UHGV virus genome: UHGV-0134778
From: a virus
Length of the DNA stretch: 64,000 nt
Direction: 5' to 3' (one strand)
Part shown: piece after piece, positions 49,440 through 55,329 of the stretch
Layout: every line of letters starts with the position of its first letter
Numbering within the stretch: position 1 is the stretch's first letter
Translations under genes and position numbers: made by a program
Notes under the pieces: generated by a model
Told to the model about the DNA's origin: nothing
Database searches by the model: none
The model's input: only the letters and a program-made list of their open reading frames with translations

Positions 49440-49994
49440 TTACTCCCCGCTGTCAATAGCAAGACTCATTGCAATACGGTATGCCTCTTCTAATGGTAAG
49501 AGTCTCCCCCACACATCCCAACCGACATCAAACTGCCTGCCAAACAACTGCTGTGTGGTTCCGTGAGCATGACCGAACAGTTGGACTGATCCGTGAGGCT
49601 TTCTGTTCCACTTTGCAAACTGGTAATGGCTCATACAGATCAAATTCTTGTTGTGGCGAAGCTCGTAATAATCTACAACCTCATGACCGAACTCTTTCAT
49701 AATTCTGACAGTCGTCCTTGTGTCATGGTTACCACGAACAAGAATAATATGTCCGTTCAACATATTTAGAACATCTGGAAGCAATTTGTTGATATTCTTA
49801 TCATTAGTGCACGCAATATCCCCCAAGTGAAACACAGTGTCTGCAGGTGACACAACAGAGTTCCACTTGGTGATGATTCCCGCATTCATACTGTCAAGAT
49901 TGTGATCATACTGAGATCTGTGTTTTTGACATGAGTCGAACTCCATTACCCGCTGGTGGAGAAAGTGTGTGTCGCTTGTTACAAAGTATTTCAT
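49440..49994 (-). CDS. calcineurin-like metallophosphoesterase (polynucleotide 2',3'-phosphatase candidate)
   Basis: ORF track gives 49440..50099, but GAGGAA RBS precedes the internal MKYF start; motifs SDTHF, HLGDI, RGNHD. Confidence 0.55.
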   Translation of the reverse strand: MKYFVTSDTHFLHQRVMEFDSCQKHRSQYDHNLDSMNAGIITKWNSVVSPADTVFHLGDIACTNDKNINKLLPDVLNMLNGHIILVRGNHDTRTTVRIMKEFGHEVVDYYELRHNKNLICMSHYQFAKWNRKPHGSVQLFGHAHGTTQQLFGRQFDVGWDVWGRLLPLEEAYRIAMSLAIDSGE

Positions 49995-50001
49995 ACATTC
50001 C

Positions 50002-50412
50002 TCATTTAAGTTTAATGCAGTTTTTAAGCTGGCGTTCCATACGATCCACAACCCTGTCTGGAACATCATGAATGCTTTTATTACCATGGCGGTTTTCAAC
50101 CACGATCACGGTATAACTATATCCATGACTGATCGCCATGTCAATATATTCTTGCACATATTTTTCTTTTGTAAACGTATTACTTACCACGATACGGTCG
50201 TAGCCCATACGCATCATATCTTCTACGTTATCTTTGCACCATTTTGCTGCAAGTGTTACTTTACTTGCATCCCAATTGTAATTGCCGTCATCGTCGTACC
50301 AGAACATATCGTTCTCAAAATGTGGATACAGACCTTCTAAAGATAGCGCATTTGCCAGTGTTGATTTGCCAGACCCTGGTAGACCACGCACGATATATAG
50401 CATTTTAGACAT
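50002..50412 (-). CDS. P-loop polynucleotide 5'-kinase-like protein
   Basis: ORF track gives 50002..50568, but GGAGAG RBS precedes the internal MSKMLYIVRGLPGSGKST start; Walker A GLPGSGKST. Confidence 0.55.
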   Translation of the reverse strand: MSKMLYIVRGLPGSGKSTLANALSLEGLYPHFENDMFWYDDDGNYNWDASKVTLAAKWCKDNVEDMMRMGYDRIVVSNTFTKEKYVQEYIDMAISHGYSYTVIVVENRHGNKSIHDVPDRVVDRMERQLKNCIKLK

Positions 50413-50440
50413 AGTAACTCTCCGTTTTAATTTTAATGAT

Positions 50441-50469
50441 AGTATACCTAACTGTTTTGTTAATTTCAA
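50441..50469 (-). promoter_or_regulatory. sigma70-like promoter TTGAAA-N17-TATACT
   Basis: Read on minus strand upstream of the kinase gene in the divergent intergenic region. Confidence 0.45.
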
Positions 50470-50512
50470 GTGTTGACACCAAGTTATTTGTGTGGCAGGA
50501 TAAAGGGACAAA

Positions 50513-51448
50513 ATGACAAATGAGGAATGTATAATGAAGTATTTTAATGCAGACGACCTAGTTGACAAAGGTCTTGTAACCAGCAGATATTACCCGGATC
50601 TTGGGTTAAAGATCTATAAATATGCCAGAAAAGTATTCTACAACAATTTATGGCATTTGTCTCCTCGTTTGCTGGAGTGCCGAGGCATTGTTGTCGGTAA
50701 TGAAGGAAATGTTGTGGCATGGCCCTTCACAAAAGTGTTTAACTTGGGAGAAAATTCCACCAACCTGCCTGACAATAAACTTGTGACGGCGGTAGAGAAA
50801 AAGAACGGATTCCTTGGTGTGGTATCATCTCATAAAGGTGAACTATTGTTCTCAACAACCGGGTCTCTTGATTCTCCATATTGTAACCTTGCAAAGGAAA
50901 CAATCCAGGAGCAATGTGGTAATTTAGATCTTATCAAGAGGGTTATGGGCCATGAAAACATGACATTCATGTTTGAAATTTGTCACCCTTCAGATCCGCA
51001 TATTGTTCAGGAAGATCATGGCGCATATTTGATAGGTTGCAGATATAATGATTCTGGAATAATGCTACCAGAAGCAGCTTTAGATGGGATTGCCAAATAC
51101 CTTGGTGCAAAACGTCCTCACACTGTGCGTGAAATTCCGTTCAGCTATGCAAAAGAATTAGCTGCAGAAACAAGAGGTGAAGGGTATATGATTCGTAAGC
51201 CTTACTACCCTTATGATCTGCAGCTGAAGATCAAGTCTCCATACTATTTGGCACGGAAGGCCGTAATGAGGGGTAAAGCTTGGAAGATTTGGGATGATGA
51301 TATCTTTAAACGTGTTGACGAAGAGTTTTATGGCATGGTAAACTTCATTCGTAGCAATTACACAGAAGATGTGTGGAACTGCCTCCTGGAGCAAGAACGT
51401 CGTGAGATACTTGACTGCTATTTCCACAACGAGGACTATATGCAATGA
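50513..51448 (+). CDS. rnlA: RNA ligase, T4 Rnl1-like
   Basis: Stretch LLECRGIVV...PFTKVFNLGEN...VEKKNGFLGVVS parallels T4 Rnl1 around its KEDG adenylylation motif; alternative start at 50534. Confidence 0.65.
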   Translation: MTNEECIMKYFNADDLVDKGLVTSRYYPDLGLKIYKYARKVFYNNLWHLSPRLLECRGIVVGNEGNVVAWPFTKVFNLGENSTNLPDNKLVTAVEKKNGFLGVVSSHKGELLFSTTGSLDSPYCNLAKETIQEQCGNLDLIKRVMGHENMTFMFEICHPSDPHIVQEDHGAYLIGCRYNDSGIMLPEAALDGIAKYLGAKRPHTVREIPFSYAKELAAETRGEGYMIRKPYYPYDLQLKIKSPYYLARKAVMRGKAWKIWDDDIFKRVDEEFYGMVNFIRSNYTEDVWNCLLEQERREILDCYFHNEDYMQ

Positions 51449-51795
51449 AGAAGTTGATTGTGTGGCTGGATGACTTGAGAGATCCGTCAAATTATGGGCT
51501 CCCAGATGCTCTTTGGCTAAAGAATTCCTCTGAGTTTATGGATTTTATTAACGATAAGGGAAAGCTCTACAGGCGCGTTTCTGAGTGGCACATGGACAAC
51601 GATCTTGGAGAGGTATTTGAAGGGTACGATTGCCTATCTATGTTGGAGGAAAAATTTGTATTTGGTAAGCCTCCTGTAGTTGACAACGTGAAGATTTTCG
51701 TGCATACTTCTAACCCATCAGCGGCTCGTAAATTCATGATTGCTGCTGACTCGTTTAAAAAGTTTGGAATAGAGATTAAACAAAACATCTACTGA
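51445..51795 (+). CDS. small protein with receiver-like acidic pocket pattern
   Basis: 116 aa; LIVWLDD...HMDND...FVHTSNP...K pattern; translationally coupled to ligase gene. Confidence 0.3.
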   Translation: MKKLIVWLDDLRDPSNYGLPDALWLKNSSEFMDFINDKGKLYRRVSEWHMDNDLGEVFEGYDCLSMLEEKFVFGKPPVVDNVKIFVHTSNPSAARKFMIAADSFKKFGIEIKQNIY

Positions 51796-51803
51796 GGACA
51801 CTT

Positions 51804-52565
51804 ATGCGACGACTGATCATTATCTCCGGTGCTGGTTTGAGCGCTGAATCTGGTATCCCCACTTTCCGATCTGGTGGCACTGCAATGTGGGAGAATTTCA
51901 GCATCGATGAGGTGTGTAACATCCACACCTTTGCCAAGAACTACTATAAGGTGCATGACTTTTACAATGCACGGCGTGTAGCTCTGGGCAGTGTTGATCC
52001 TAACCTTGCACATCTCCGGATCGCTGAGTGGTATTCACGCTGGTCTGGTCGTGTGATCAACCTGACAACCAATGTAGATGATTTGCTGGAGCGTGCTGGT
52101 GTAAAACATGAAGATATTTTACATGTCCACGGATATTTGCCAGAAATAGTCTACGAGGATGATGAAGGGAGTAACGTCATTAAAGACATTGGATACTCTG
52201 AGGTAGACGCAAGCAAGTATACTTGGGTTAAGCCTAATGTAGTGTTTTTCGGAGAAGTAGCTCCAAAGTATACAGACATGTATGACCTGTTGACTTCTCT
52301 GACGAGCAATGATATGGTTATCCTTGTAGGGTGCTCCAACACAGTTATCAATTTTAACTGGGAGCTATTCCCTGCCTGTAATAAGGGAACCAAACTGCTG
52401 ATCGTTAACAAATACGACTCACAGCATTTAGGGGAGAATGGCATTTCACGTAGTGACATTTACCAGTATGAGGATCGCGGCATCCCAGTTTGGTTTAACG
52501 GGGCGGTTGACGCTTTCTCTGATAAAACATTTATTGACATCGTAGAAAACTTTATGGAACTGTAA
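51804..52565 (+). CDS. Sir2-family NAD-dependent protein lacking zinc ribbon
   Basis: GAGLSAESGIPTFR, TTNVDDLLERAG, HVHG and VGCSNTV motifs; no CxxC pairs. Confidence 0.65.
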   Translation: MRRLIIISGAGLSAESGIPTFRSGGTAMWENFSIDEVCNIHTFAKNYYKVHDFYNARRVALGSVDPNLAHLRIAEWYSRWSGRVINLTTNVDDLLERAGVKHEDILHVHGYLPEIVYEDDEGSNVIKDIGYSEVDASKYTWVKPNVVFFGEVAPKYTDMYDLLTSLTSNDMVILVGCSNTVINFNWELFPACNKGTKLLIVNKYDSQHLGENGISRSDIYQYEDRGIPVWFNGAVDAFSDKTFIDIVENFMEL

Positions 52566-52579
52566 GCGGAGGCCTTTTA

Positions 52580-53293
52580 ATGCTGAATACTAAACTGATC
52601 GACAACCTGGAAAAACTGTCTCAGCCTGAAAACTACCTTTGGTCTGCCAACTGGGTGGAAAATTGGAACCGTGTAGCAGCTAAAGTGAAAAAATCATACA
52701 CACCATTCGAACTTCAGCTGAGTTTCATTGAGGAAGAGTTCAATGAAGTTTTGGAAGAGTTGGAGAAAGGTGATGGTGGGGATCATCTCCTAAAAGAGGC
52801 CTGCGATCTTCACGTTGTCACAAGTTATGCCGCTTATCTTGTTAACGATAACCATGAAAAGTGGTCAAACCTGTTTGATAATCCGCGAGGTCTTAAGTTT
52901 AAGATCGGTGAATTTTATGATACACTGATCGCTGCGAAAAATACCTCTAAGCAAAGAGCGTCTGCTTACCGCTTAGCAGAGCTGTCAACGGCTTTACTGT
53001 TCCAGCTTCGCGGTGATGTGTGCGGGATGATGCGGAAGGTTCTAAAATCTAATGACAGCAAGTTTGCACGTGTCAACCATCTGCGGCATTCACACGGTGC
53101 CAGTGCAGATATGCCTGCTGAACAACTCATCGAGTTGGAGATTAAAGATCTTGAGCGACGCTTTGATGGTCGCTATGAAGGTTTTGTTGCTAAAGAAGAA
53201 TTCTACAACGGAAATAAAGTTATCATATTCCTCGACAGTAAAGGTAAGATTATGAAGCCTTCAAGCTTCAAGGATGTAACAGAATATATTTAA
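52580..53293 (+). CDS. MazG-like nucleotide pyrophosphohydrolase candidate
   Basis: 237 aa; EEEFNEVLEELE...EACD fits the EExxE...ExxD pattern. Confidence 0.3.
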   Translation: MLNTKLIDNLEKLSQPENYLWSANWVENWNRVAAKVKKSYTPFELQLSFIEEEFNEVLEELEKGDGGDHLLKEACDLHVVTSYAAYLVNDNHEKWSNLFDNPRGLKFKIGEFYDTLIAAKNTSKQRASAYRLAELSTALLFQLRGDVCGMMRKVLKSNDSKFARVNHLRHSHGASADMPAEQLIELEIKDLERRFDGRYEGFVAKEEFYNGNKVIIFLDSKGKIMKPSSFKDVTEYI

Positions 53294-53300
53294 TAACATA

Positions 53301-53328
53301 GCCGGGGCGATCCCGGCTTTACTTGTTT
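53301..53328 (+). terminator. rho-independent terminator
   Basis: GCCGGG-GCGAU-CCCGGC hairpin followed by TTTACTTGTTT. Confidence 0.55.
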
Positions 53329-53357
53329 CGGAAAGTATGCAAGTGAGGTAGAAAGTT

Positions 53358-53666
53358 ATGTACAAGCACTCCAGAGATCTTGAAAACGATGATGTGTTTG
53401 GGGATCAGATGAAAGAATTGGTTAAACTTATAGGTAGGATAGAGGATAAGTTTGACACTAAGATCTACATCGACAGCAAAGTATTCAACCACAAAATATG
53501 GACAAATCTGTGTGTTGGACTGCATGGAGATAAAGATGTGGTAAATTTAGTTGTAATTAAGTTCATAGTGTGGCAGAATAAAACTATAAATTATTACGAT
53601 CCACACCTACTTGTTTACCCGATAAAAGACCTATTAGAGAAGGAGGACTGCAATGCCGTTATTTAA
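53358..53666 (+). CDS. hypothetical protein
   Basis: 102-aa ORF. Confidence 0.35.
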   Translation: MYKHSRDLENDDVFGDQMKELVKLIGRIEDKFDTKIYIDSKVFNHKIWTNLCVGLHGDKDVVNLVVIKFIVWQNKTINYYDPHLLVYPIKDLLEKEDCNAVI

Positions 53667-53922
53667 TCTTGCTAGACCTGTAGAAGCACACCAGTTTGAC
53701 GGAAGCTCTTCATCAGTATCTGATCTGCAACGGTGGATTGATACAGGTGTGTTTACACCGTCACCTGTTCGGACCAGAGATATTCTTCGCATGTGTGAGC
53801 TTGTCGAGCCGTTTGGTAACCTGGTCTTGTACCAAGGGGATTGGTTAGTTGACTTTATGGGAGACTGGTTGGTAATGAGCAAAGAAGAGATGTTTAAAAT
53901 TTTTAAGGAAGAGGCTGAGTAA
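53653..53922 (+). CDS. hypothetical protein
   Basis: 89-aa ORF coupled to DNA ligase start. Confidence 0.35.
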   Translation: MPLFNLARPVEAHQFDGSSSSVSDLQRWIDTGVFTPSPVRTRDILRMCELVEPFGNLVLYQGDWLVDFMGDWLVMSKEEMFKIFKEEAE

Positions 53923-55205
53923 TGCATCAGATCAAAACAACACTGTACGCACTGAACAAAGATGGCAGCTACCAACAGTGGAAAGTATTCACGGATGGTG
54001 ATAAGGTTATCGTAGAGTTTGGCAAGCTTGATGGTAAACTGCAATACAAAGAGACGATCTGCACACCTAAGAACGTGGGTCGTGCCAATGAAACTACAGC
54101 TGAGCAACAGGCTGAGCTGGAAGCGATCAGTAAGTGGGAAAAACAAGTCCGTCTGGGGTATGTTGAAAATATGGAAGATTGCGAGCAGGGTGTTGACCTT
54201 TTACCCATGTTGGTGCATGACTACCTGAAGCGTGGAAAGGCACTTAAATTACCTTGCTGGATTTTGCGTAAGTTAGATGGCCTTCGTCTACTGGTTGTTT
54301 TCCAAAACGGTGAGCCTAAATTTATTTCCCGTGGTAATAAGTCCTACCCTATTCAAGGAAAGCTTCTGGAGCAACTTCGTTCTTTCCACTTCACCACCGG
54401 GATTAAACAGCTCGACGGAGAGATCTATATTCATGGTCTGCCTCTGCAGAAAATAGTGTCTCTTGCTAAACGTTGGCGCACACAGGAAGAGATTCAGGCC
54501 GAGATCGATAAAGACTACGAGGCAGATAAAAAACGCCGTCATGCCGCAATTAAGGCAGGCTTATCAACATACAAAAACTTCAATAAGGTAGATATTCCTG
54601 TTGATGTTGAGCCTGTTCGTGATGATTTGCGTTACGGAGGGTACTGTAGCTATGACTTAGAGTATCATATTTTCGACATCCCTAGTGACAAGGTATGGTG
54701 GGATCCAGAAACAGAATCTGGACGATGCAAGGATCTTATGGATGCAGAAGATACCATTACCACCCTGATGCTTGACCATATCAAGGTTGTTGACGCAGAG
54801 CTTGCGTACACAGTTGATCATTGCGAAGAATCTGTTGGTGTATTCATGTCCGAAGGATATGAAGGTACTATCATGCGTAACTTCTGCGGTAAATATGAAT
54901 ATGGTCAGCGAACATCTGAAGCATTGAAATGGAAAAAGTTCAACGATGCTGAGGTGAAAGTTATTGACGTTGAGAAAGATAAGAATGATGAAGGTGTTCT
55001 TATCTGCGTTGACAAGGAAGGTATCGTTGTTAAAATGAAGATGAAAGGCACGCACGAGGAGCGTAGCTATGACAGGATGCAGGAAATGATCGGCAAGTTT
55101 GTCACCTTCAAATATCAAGCAAGGACAGAAGACAACAACTACCAATTCCCTGTCGGCATCTGCGTCCGAAATGTTAACCCTGACACTTGGGAGGTTCTGG
55201 AATGA
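53922..55205 (+). CDS. ATP-dependent DNA ligase with N-terminal extension
   Basis: 427 aa; motif I KLDGLR; roughly 90-aa N-terminal extra domain. Confidence 0.65.
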   Translation: MHQIKTTLYALNKDGSYQQWKVFTDGDKVIVEFGKLDGKLQYKETICTPKNVGRANETTAEQQAELEAISKWEKQVRLGYVENMEDCEQGVDLLPMLVHDYLKRGKALKLPCWILRKLDGLRLLVVFQNGEPKFISRGNKSYPIQGKLLEQLRSFHFTTGIKQLDGEIYIHGLPLQKIVSLAKRWRTQEEIQAEIDKDYEADKKRRHAAIKAGLSTYKNFNKVDIPVDVEPVRDDLRYGGYCSYDLEYHIFDIPSDKVWWDPETESGRCKDLMDAEDTITTLMLDHIKVVDAELAYTVDHCEESVGVFMSEGYEGTIMRNFCGKYEYGQRTSEALKWKKFNDAEVKVIDVEKDKNDEGVLICVDKEGIVVKMKMKGTHEERSYDRMQEMIGKFVTFKYQARTEDNNYQFPVGICVRNVNPDTWEVLE

Positions 55206-55232
55206 TGTAGGAAGGTTTAGTAGGTAACGGTA

Positions 55233-55261
55233 GCCAATTGAATGATGGTTTTTCAATTGGC
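55233..55261 (+). promoter_or_regulatory. 9-bp-stem inverted repeat GCCAATTGA/TCAATTGGC
   Basis: Perfect inverted repeat with 11-nt loop just after ligase stop; no T-run, so regulatory rather than terminator. Confidence 0.3.
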
Positions 55262-55329
55262 ACCTACATAACCACATTATGCAGTGTTGTTGATCGGGTT
55301 AGTTATGAGTAAATTGGAGAGTATGAAAA

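Follow-up and report, generated by a model that had tools for sequence, protein, structure and literature searches.

A class III-type sirtuin lacking zinc ligands beside the RNA ligase gene of a Vequintavirus genome, and its possible role in RNA repair

The window analyzed here, a 64,000-nucleotide stretch of virus genome UHGV-0134778, encodes a 253-residue Sir2 protein (sirtuin) in an array with a T4 RnlA-like RNA ligase, a cyclic-phosphate-processing receiver-like domain protein (cREC), and a MazG-like protein. By sequence and predicted fold, this sirtuin is a divergent class III-type protein that has retained the small β module of its class and lost the metal ligands, and we infer that it is an active enzyme of CobB/SIRT5-type descent that depends on nicotinamide adenine dinucleotide (NAD+). 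The gene, its absent zinc site, and a proposed role in RNA repair were all published earlier, and the window holds no new kind of element. Our comparison of gene neighborhoods adds that the sirtuin is an optional and movable part of a wider module comprising cREC, a metallophosphoesterase, an Rnl-type RNA ligase, a kinase, a DNA ligase, and the MazG-like protein. RNA-directed ADP-ribosyl transfer in RNA repair, as proposed by Iyer et al. (2022), is the role that we tentatively favor; the idea is plausible, but its syntenic support is looser than a single operon suggests. About 1,000 sequenced phage genomes encode a relative of the sirtuin, T5-, rV5-, phAPEC8-, and KVP40-like phages among them.

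The initial annotation of this DNA described a protein of 253 amino acids with the canonical sirtuin NAD-pocket motifs and no CxxC zinc module, and closer analysis bore out both descriptions. The protein matches Pfam SIR2 (PF02146, E=1.1e-26) and carries the cofactor-loop motif GAGLSAESGIPTFR at residues 9-22, TTNVDD at 88-93, the catalytic H109-G110 pair, FFGE at 148-151, GCS at 176-178, and VN at 201-202, with H109, N90, and D92 as the catalytic residues. All NAD-pocket and catalytic motif positions are invariant in an 18-sequence family alignment, and 59 positions, including every catalytic or NAD-binding residue, are invariant across homologs that are 51-62% identical. The only cysteines are C38, C177, and C192; none lies between H109 and FFGE, CxxC occurs nowhere in the protein, and the four cysteines in the zinc segment of E. 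coli CobB have no cysteine counterpart in the alignment. The class III Y-x-x-R signature is kept as Y54-x-x-R57, with Tyr54 and Arg57 conserved in all enterobacterial-phage members, and FYNARR is the same as in CobB. Three motifs are specific to the phage clade: D-[IV]-G-Y within the β module, KPNVVFFGE, and, instead of ATP, VCNI. A GAGGA Shine-Dalgarno sequence is positioned 6 nt 5' of the ATG at 51804, and this start agrees with those of all homologs.

Comparisons of structure and sequence place the phage protein among the class III sirtuins. An AlphaFold model (18 homologs) had a predicted local distance difference test score (pLDDT) of 88.7 and a predicted template-modeling score of 0.86, and Foldseek searches of the PDB with this protein returned E. 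coli CobB and SIRT5 as best matches (E about 1e-18, template-modeling scores 0.75-0.85); Pfam SIR2, AlphaFold, and Foldseek agree on a real sirtuin fold. SIRT5 and CobB were also the top matches in a phmmer search of PDB sequences (E=5e-21), and CobB, SIRT5, and Archaeoglobus Sir2-Af1 are closest to the phage sirtuin in both sequence and fold. Class III sirtuins share with it GAGxSxxSGIxTFR, TxNxD, HG, FGE, and FYNARR, as well as a small β module of similar length. The phage sirtuin differs from them in having no cysteine zinc ligands, in being only ~26-28% identical, and in falling below every CobB equivalog cut-off: the best NCBIfam CobB score (NF040867, NF001753, and related models) was 120.9 bits against a cut-off of 243, and prot_deacyl_CobB gave 102 against 320.

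A likeness to the NAD-consuming SIR2 domains of defense systems, also put forward in the initial annotation, did not survive these comparisons. The defense SIR2 NADases (ThsA, DSR1/2, SIR2-HerA, and SIR2-pAgo; Pfam SIR2_2) share the sirtuin Rossmann core and have no bound zinc, but in SIR2_2 proteins the entire zinc module is absent (PMC12700824), whereas in the phage model a three-stranded sheet (residues 110-118, 124-128, and 142-146) persists at the site of this module. A Pfam scan of the sirtuin gave no match to SIR2_2 (PF13289) at E<=0.01, the sole match to PADLOC defense models was spurious (33 residues, E=0.012), and, unlike the defense enzymes, the phage protein has no fused or adjacent sensor or partner (SLOG, HerA, pAgo, TIR, or STAND). 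Because CobB and SIRT5 are the best matches and both the Y-x-x-R signature and the β module are kept, we classify the protein as a divergent class III-type sirtuin rather than a defense-type SIR2. It also lacks the adjacent or fused macrodomain and the SirTM-type sequence of SirTM enzymes, the macrodomain-linked ADP-ribosylating sirtuins. Tpt1/KptA has an ADP-ribosyltransferase fold (Pfam PTS_2-RNA) that is unrelated to the sirtuin Rossmann fold, and any likeness to the phage protein is therefore at most a functional analogy.

Several details of the gene deserve mention. A ~20-residue insertion, KYDSQHLGENGISRSDIYQYEDRG, follows the LLIVN strand (window 52409-52480, Sir2 residues ~203-225); it is present only in the window protein and three aligned homologs (P0006, P0028, and P0074) and contains a low-confidence stretch at residues 209-211 (pLDDT <50). 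The record of Escherichia phage NHEP1 begins the Sir2 coding sequence at an internal ATG (51885) and thereby loses the GAGxS NAD-binding loop; elsewhere among the records, the ligase and Sir2 genes are split or given two names. A chance open reading frame (ORF) or pseudogene was considered and is ruled out by conservation and the confident predicted fold.

The region from 50400 to 55300 shares 99% identity with NHEP1 and 94-98% with FV3 and further phages of the rV5 type, identities that make the window part of the genome of a Vequintavirus, an rV5-type phage of E. coli; of the 122 records that match this region, 110 contain 80% or more of it. Matching Vequintavirus records already label the gene "Sir2-like" or "NAD-dependent deacetylase", and it is annotated in more than 100 genomes. 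Within the array, the ligase stop and cREC start codons overlap (ATGA), gaps of 8 nt and 14 nt separate cREC from Sir2 and Sir2 from the MazG-like gene, and each gene has a Shine-Dalgarno sequence (GAGGA or GGAGG). This spacing suggests that the ligase, cREC, Sir2, and MazG-like genes are co-transcribed. A terminator-like hairpin with an 8-bp stem containing 6 GC pairs, followed by the T-tract TTACTTGTTT, is placed after the MazG-like stop codon at 53293. The gene order first described for this DNA (ligase, receiver-like protein, Sir2, MazG-like hydrolase, first terminator) thus stands with respect to the ORFs and the hairpin, but the MazG-like label is thinly supported. Upstream, a 97-bp region separates the ligase operon from a kinase/phosphoesterase pair; it is presumed from sequence to contain promoters and has TTGACA at 50473-50478 with no convincing -10 element.

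The six genes found between 49440 and 53293 correspond, with no material difference, to a system already described. Iyer, Burroughs, Anantharaman, and Aravind (Viruses 14:1977, 2022, section 3.7.3; PMC9503650) defined three sirtuin-centered neighborhoods, of which type 2, with Escherichia phage V5 and Proteus phage Mydo as prototypes, contains a sirtuin, a T4-like ligase, cREC, a nucleotide kinase, a protein of the MazG superfamily, and in some cases a calcineurin-like phosphoesterase in the same phage group as the window. They proposed that the sirtuin acts like KptA/Tpt1 by removing 2'-phosphates. The cREC domain had been defined, and linked to RNA ligases, by Iyer et al. (2021). Skliros et al. 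(2016; PMC5107563) reported that the zinc site is absent in Sir2/CobB of the Vibrio phages KVP40, phiSt2, and phiGrn1, named further carriers, T5 among them, and suggested that the protein serves to deacetylate host acetyl-CoA synthetase; these proteins belong to the same phage clade and likewise have no zinc ligands, but their genomic context is different. We found no experimental work on any phage sirtuin in the literature.

A scan centered on cREC, which recovered 47 loci, indicated that the repair module has an existence apart from the sirtuin. Two phAPEC8/Justusliebig-like contigs have NAMPT, phosphoribosyl pyrophosphate (PRPP) synthetase, cREC, metallophosphoesterase, Rnl1, kinase, DNA ligase, MazG-like, and RdgC genes, all intact, with NAMPT and PRPP synthetase upstream of the Sir2-less module on the opposite strand; a third phAPEC8-like contig (L094) has the same module, although Rnl and the kinase were not detected in it. 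In an uncultured phage (L095), the module consists of cREC, metallophosphoesterase, an Rnl2-type ligase, Rnl1, kinase, DNA ligase, MazG-like, and RdgC genes. A megablast with the L095 module gave no close relative in the phage collection, and the L095 ligase resembles that of Pseudomonas phage phiPMW, so that a Felix O1-like origin is rejected. Replacement of Sir2 by KptA/Tpt1 was examined in L092 and L095 and rejected, as the unassigned ORFs tested proved to be an Rnl2-type ligase, RdgC, and unknowns. The existence of these Sir2-less modules means that neither cREC nor the MazG-like protein needs the sirtuin and that the module evidently can work without it. These two proteins are part of an older heal-and-seal module, to which the sirtuin is an optional and mobile addition.

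Zinc loss was also followed across the clade. When 1.84 billion representatives were searched exhaustively with HMMER, 74 proteins matched at E<=1e-30 and 1495 at E<=1e-10, and 992 phage records contain a sirtuin relative. In a zinc-ligand alignment of 140 representatives (142 rows with the query and CobB), 47 rows (46 representatives and the query) have at most one cysteine in the module and 91 rows (90 representatives and CobB) have at least three; D-[IV]-G-Y and KPNVVFFGE are present in both the cysteine-poor and the cysteine-containing sets. For neighborhood analysis, a pattern and tblastn scan of IMG/VR gave 352 loci with relatives, and the best 80 of these 352 formed 39 groups at 80% Sir2 identity. 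Within these 39 viral lineage groups, the zinc ligands are missing from every enterobacterial-phage lineage (rV5-, Mydo-, T5-, and phAPEC8-like) and from the KVP40-like group, and CxxC...CxxC is kept in about a dozen of the remoter metagenomic and jumbo-phage members. Loss of the zinc ligands follows lineage and not association with an RNA ligase.

If the sirtuin takes part in RNA repair, the substrate and every step of the pathway can be sketched as follows. Host ribonucleases would cut tRNA or mRNA and so produce 2',3'-cyclic phosphate ends, which a phosphodiesterase, either cREC or the metallophosphoesterase, would open; the kinase would phosphorylate the 5'-OH, and the ligase would seal the break. 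With NAD+ as the donor, the sirtuin might then transfer ADP-ribose to a phosphate that remains on the RNA, be it a junction 2'-phosphate or a terminal phosphate; nicotinamide would be released, the phosphate would be removed or capped, as by Tpt1/KptA with its unrelated fold, and a phosphoesterase would clear the by-product. A negatively charged acceptor such as phosphate would suit the retained class III Y-x-x-R anion pocket. Features of gene context are consistent with this scheme. The sirtuin gene lies in a tight array with Rnl1 and cREC and opposite the divergent kinase/phosphoesterase pair, a layout preserved in 110 of the 122 closely related records, and Pfam and PADLOC scans found no macro domain partner or defense sensor domain beside it. 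In Mydo/GAP31-like phages, where the order is metallophosphoesterase, an intervening gene, Rnl, cREC, kinase, Sir2, DNA ligase, and, further on, MazG, the sirtuin occupies another position and stays within the module despite the rearrangement. A 607-kb megaphage contig (L072:5582-8705) shows an independent association with a ligase: one strand encodes a ligase of the Rnl1 type, an enzyme of the arginase or deacetylase fold (arginase family PF00491, E=9e-76), a 109-residue ORF, and a Sir2 from this clade that keeps its zinc ligands. Phosphoesterases for RNA ends or ADP-ribose also recur beside the clade: a HAD_SAK_2 phosphatase in T5-like phages and, at a jumbo-phage locus (L076:2339-9986), a Nudt16-like Nudix enzyme and cREC. 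What these contexts have in common is NAD+ supply and enzymes whose substrates are phosphates of RNA ends or of ADP-ribose.

Other observations weigh against a role in RNA repair. Counting genes within 8 kb of Sir2, by profiles built from neighbors, an Rnl1-type ligase occurs in just 7 of the 39 groups and cREC in 5, with the kinase in 6, the metallophosphoesterase in 9, the MazG-like gene in 7, and the DNA ligase in 10. The commonest neighbor is NAMPT (11/39), a sign of NAD economy no less than of RNA. Linkage to the ligase gene in relatives, whose absence would count against the idea according to the initial annotation, holds in rV5-like and Mydo-like phages and breaks down in T5-like phages and phAPEC8-like contigs. 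T5-like phages, the nearest outgroup (58% Sir2 identity), have no RNA ligase within flanks of 8-9 kb on each side; there, Sir2 follows NrdD among ribonucleotide-reductase and replication genes, and the HAD_SAK_2 gene lies 19-280 nt downstream. The phAPEC8-like module contains no sirtuin, and Sir2 is located 31-33 kb away among genes of unassigned function (L036/L092, L035/L093, and L034/L094). The L095 module has neither Sir2 nor a recognizable KptA among those of its ORFs that were scanned with Pfam. At KVP40-type loci (L064 and L067), whose proteins are ~45% identical to the window sirtuin, neither an Rnl1-type ligase nor cREC was detected over 8 kb. On the biochemical side, the closest characterized relatives of the sirtuin are all protein deacylases, and we know of no sirtuin that acts on RNA. 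The T4 Rnl1 pathway is not known to leave a 2'-phosphate, and the window ligase is T4 Rnl1-like. The metallophosphoesterase alone could clear 2'- or 3'-phosphates. A bolder form of the proposal, which we regard as possible but rather unlikely, is that the phage clade represents the first sirtuin-fold enzyme to act on nucleic acid, convergent with Tpt1/KptA and working either as a 2'-phosphotransferase on RNA or as an ADP-ribosyltransferase on RNA ends, in which the Y-x-x-R pocket would be re-used for phosphate and the cysteine-free D-[IV]-G-Y module for RNA binding. Were the RNA-repair role to prove correct, sirtuin chemistry would extend from proteins to RNA, there would be a second, convergent route to 2'-phosphate removal, and phage NAD+ salvage would be linked to the repair of damage by host-defense ribonucleases.

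The ancestry of the sirtuin makes protein deacylation nearly as likely as an RNA role. As a CobB-like lysine deacetylase, desuccinylase, or demalonylase acting on host or phage proteins, the enzyme might reprogram metabolism or gene expression, and its position in the cluster would reflect incidental clustering of early genes. The succinyl-binding Y-x-x-R, the catalytic H/N/D residues, FGE, and GxS are all kept, the β module that helps to form the peptide cleft remains in the AlphaFold model, the gene is found in many contexts without an RNA ligase, and deacylation is what Skliros et al. (2016; PMC5107563) argued for the Vibrio-phage homolog. Yet the zinc module is reportedly needed for deacetylation in canonical sirtuins (PMC12700824), and the phage protein has lost all four of its ligands; the acyl-lysine tunnel has V-I-N in the phage sirtuin where V-x-P is usual; 121 bits is far under the 243 required, as for every NCBIfam CobB cut-off; and repeated, independent adjacency to cREC, HAD_SAK_2, and Nudix genes would be unexpected for a general deacylase. 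On balance we hold deacylation to be a possible but doubtful role; if correct, the protein would be a sirtuin that naturally does without zinc and that serves the phage in rewriting the acylome of its host.

An improbable third role lies in NAD+/ADP-ribose economy or counter-defense, in which the sirtuin would convert NAD+ or nicotinamide mononucleotide (NMN) to ADP-ribose or phosphoribosyl derivatives by base exchange or CobT-like transfer, or would alter or eliminate immune signals derived from NAD. Its partners would be NAMPT, PRPP synthetase, Nudix, and NADAR proteins, and its targets neither RNA nor proteins. The frequency of NAMPT near Sir2 speaks for such a role, as do the numbers of groups with PRPP synthetase (6), Nudix (about 10), and NADAR (5; HAD_SAK_2 is also found in 5). 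NAMPT adjoins Sir2 at two loci (L063 and L070), the jumbo-phage locus noted above encodes NMNAT-Nudix and NAMPT (an NAD salvage pair), Sir2, a 122-residue ORF, the Nudt16-like Nudix, and cREC, and CobB can substitute for CobT (PMC9503650). NAMPT is common in large phages generally (2042 records), however, and its proximity may be incidental; a NAMPT tblastn sample, which is not exhaustive, included no Vequintavirus. None of the NAD-salvage genes looked for (NAMPT, PRPP synthetase, Nudix, and NADAR) lies within the 64-kb window, a stand-alone NAD+ consumer would oppose the phage's own NAD supply, and the sirtuin neither carries a sensor or regulatory domain nor resembles defense NADases. Loss of all zinc ligands, and absence of the gene in some relatives whose repair module is otherwise intact, would also fit a decaying, catalytically dead remnant of a captured cobB, an explanation we consider very improbable given the 59 invariant positions at 51-62% identity, with every catalytic and NAD-binding residue among them, the 992 phage records with relatives, the confident predicted fold, and the strong Shine-Dalgarno sequence at the start codon.

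Two further details concern the surveyed loci. In T5-like RefSeq records, the HAD_SAK_2 phosphatase 3' of Sir2 (L083:9985-10491 in Escherichia phage OSYSP, a T5.105 homolog) is labeled "Sir2 (NAD-dependent deacetylase)", which looks like annotation carry-over. Another locus, L025, begins inside a NAMPT gene (100-bp megablast).

The proteins encoded around the sirtuin (Table 1) vary in how securely they can be assigned. The RNA ligase matches PF09511 (E=1.1e-14) and phrog_562 (E=1.6e-65) and has motif I as K96-x-N-G; its relatives begin at the equivalent of the ATG at 50534. A ligase family profile run against the PDB returned T4 Rnl1 (2c5u, E=8.6e-9) as the only ligase type, with no fungal Trl1. 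The cREC protein matches PF20274 (E=4.8e-14), contains the conserved motifs WLDDLRDP, H-x-D-N-D-L-G-E, and HTSNP, and has D9, D10, D51, D53, N90, and P91 as invariant residues (alignment A5). The MazG-like label is the least secure part of the observation: it derives from PHROG 671, "nucleotide pyrophosphohydrolase" (E=1.1e-21), the motif EEEFNE...CD, and a weak match of the family profile to HisE (1yvw, E=0.25) over the EExxE...D motif, and the protein has no Pfam or NCBIfam match. Residues E52, E53, E56, C75, and D76 are invariant in this family (alignment A4), and the C-terminal region is conserved too. Single-sequence searches of the PDB with the ligase and with the MazG-like protein gave zero matches.

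On the opposite strand, the kinase matches AAA_33 (E=2.8e-10) and two PHROGs annotated as "polynucleotide kinase" (phrog_2071 and phrog_505), and in relatives its gene adjoins Rnl on the same strand. The metallophosphoesterase matches Metallophos/Metallophos_2 (E about 4e-6) and phrog_547, "phosphoesterase" (E=5e-52), is part of the conserved module in relatives, and is a candidate RNA 2'/3'-end phosphatase. Its mechanically called ORF begins at TTG 50099 and overlaps the kinase gene by ~100 nt (49992-50099); the true start is probably the ATG at 49994, which gives the conserved N-terminus MKYFVTSDTHF and lies 7 nt past the kinase stop, a spacing that suggests a tightly coupled kinase-phosphoesterase pair. 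The DNA ligase lies beyond the terminator, yet it is a constant member of the module in relatives, being present in all cREC-Rnl modules examined as well as in the Sir2 groups counted above.

Table 1. Features around the sirtuin gene in the window, and modules without Sir2 found on other contigs.
Feature	Position	Strand	Support
Calcineurin-like metallophosphoesterase	49440..50099	-	Pfam Metallophos, Metallophos_2; phrog_547
P-loop kinase, polynucleotide-kinase type	50002..50415	-	Pfam AAA_33; phrog_2071, phrog_505
Divergent intergenic region, 97 bp, presumed promoters	50416..50512	.	Sequence reading only
Rnl1-type (T4 RnlA-like) ATP-dependent RNA ligase	50513..51448	+	Pfam RNA_lig_T4_1 PF09511; phrog_562
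cREC (cyclic-phosphate-processing receiver-like domain protein)	51445..51795	+	Pfam cREC_REC PF20274
Sirtuin, class III-like, no Cys ligands in zinc module, 253 aa	51804..52565	+	Pfam SIR2 PF02146
MazG-like all-alpha nucleoside triphosphate (NTP)-pyrophosphohydrolase-type protein	52580..53293	+	phrog_671
Intrinsic-terminator-like hairpin	53300..53318	+	Sequence reading
ATP-dependent DNA ligase	53922..55205	+	Pfam DNA_ligase_A_M, DNA_ligase_OB_2
Sir2-less heal-and-seal modules	L092:7959-14723, L094:7992-13214, L095:7983-15976		cREC-centered scan

Elsewhere in the window, ARAGORN called 7 genes in a tRNA cluster at 45692-46503 (- strand); in the near-identical NHEP1 record, only five tRNAs are annotated. 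One of the calls (45936-46034) is tRNA-like, 99 nt long, and has an anticodon called as four bases; it scored 35.5 bits on the Rfam tRNA model, and a tRNA-Ser(tga) at 46133-46223 fell below the Rfam threshold. Finally, 18-25 GenBank records named "Campylobacter phage", with C. jejuni given as the host, are more than 90% identical to the 50400-55300 region; their host labels are likely to be wrong, or the records likely reflect contamination.

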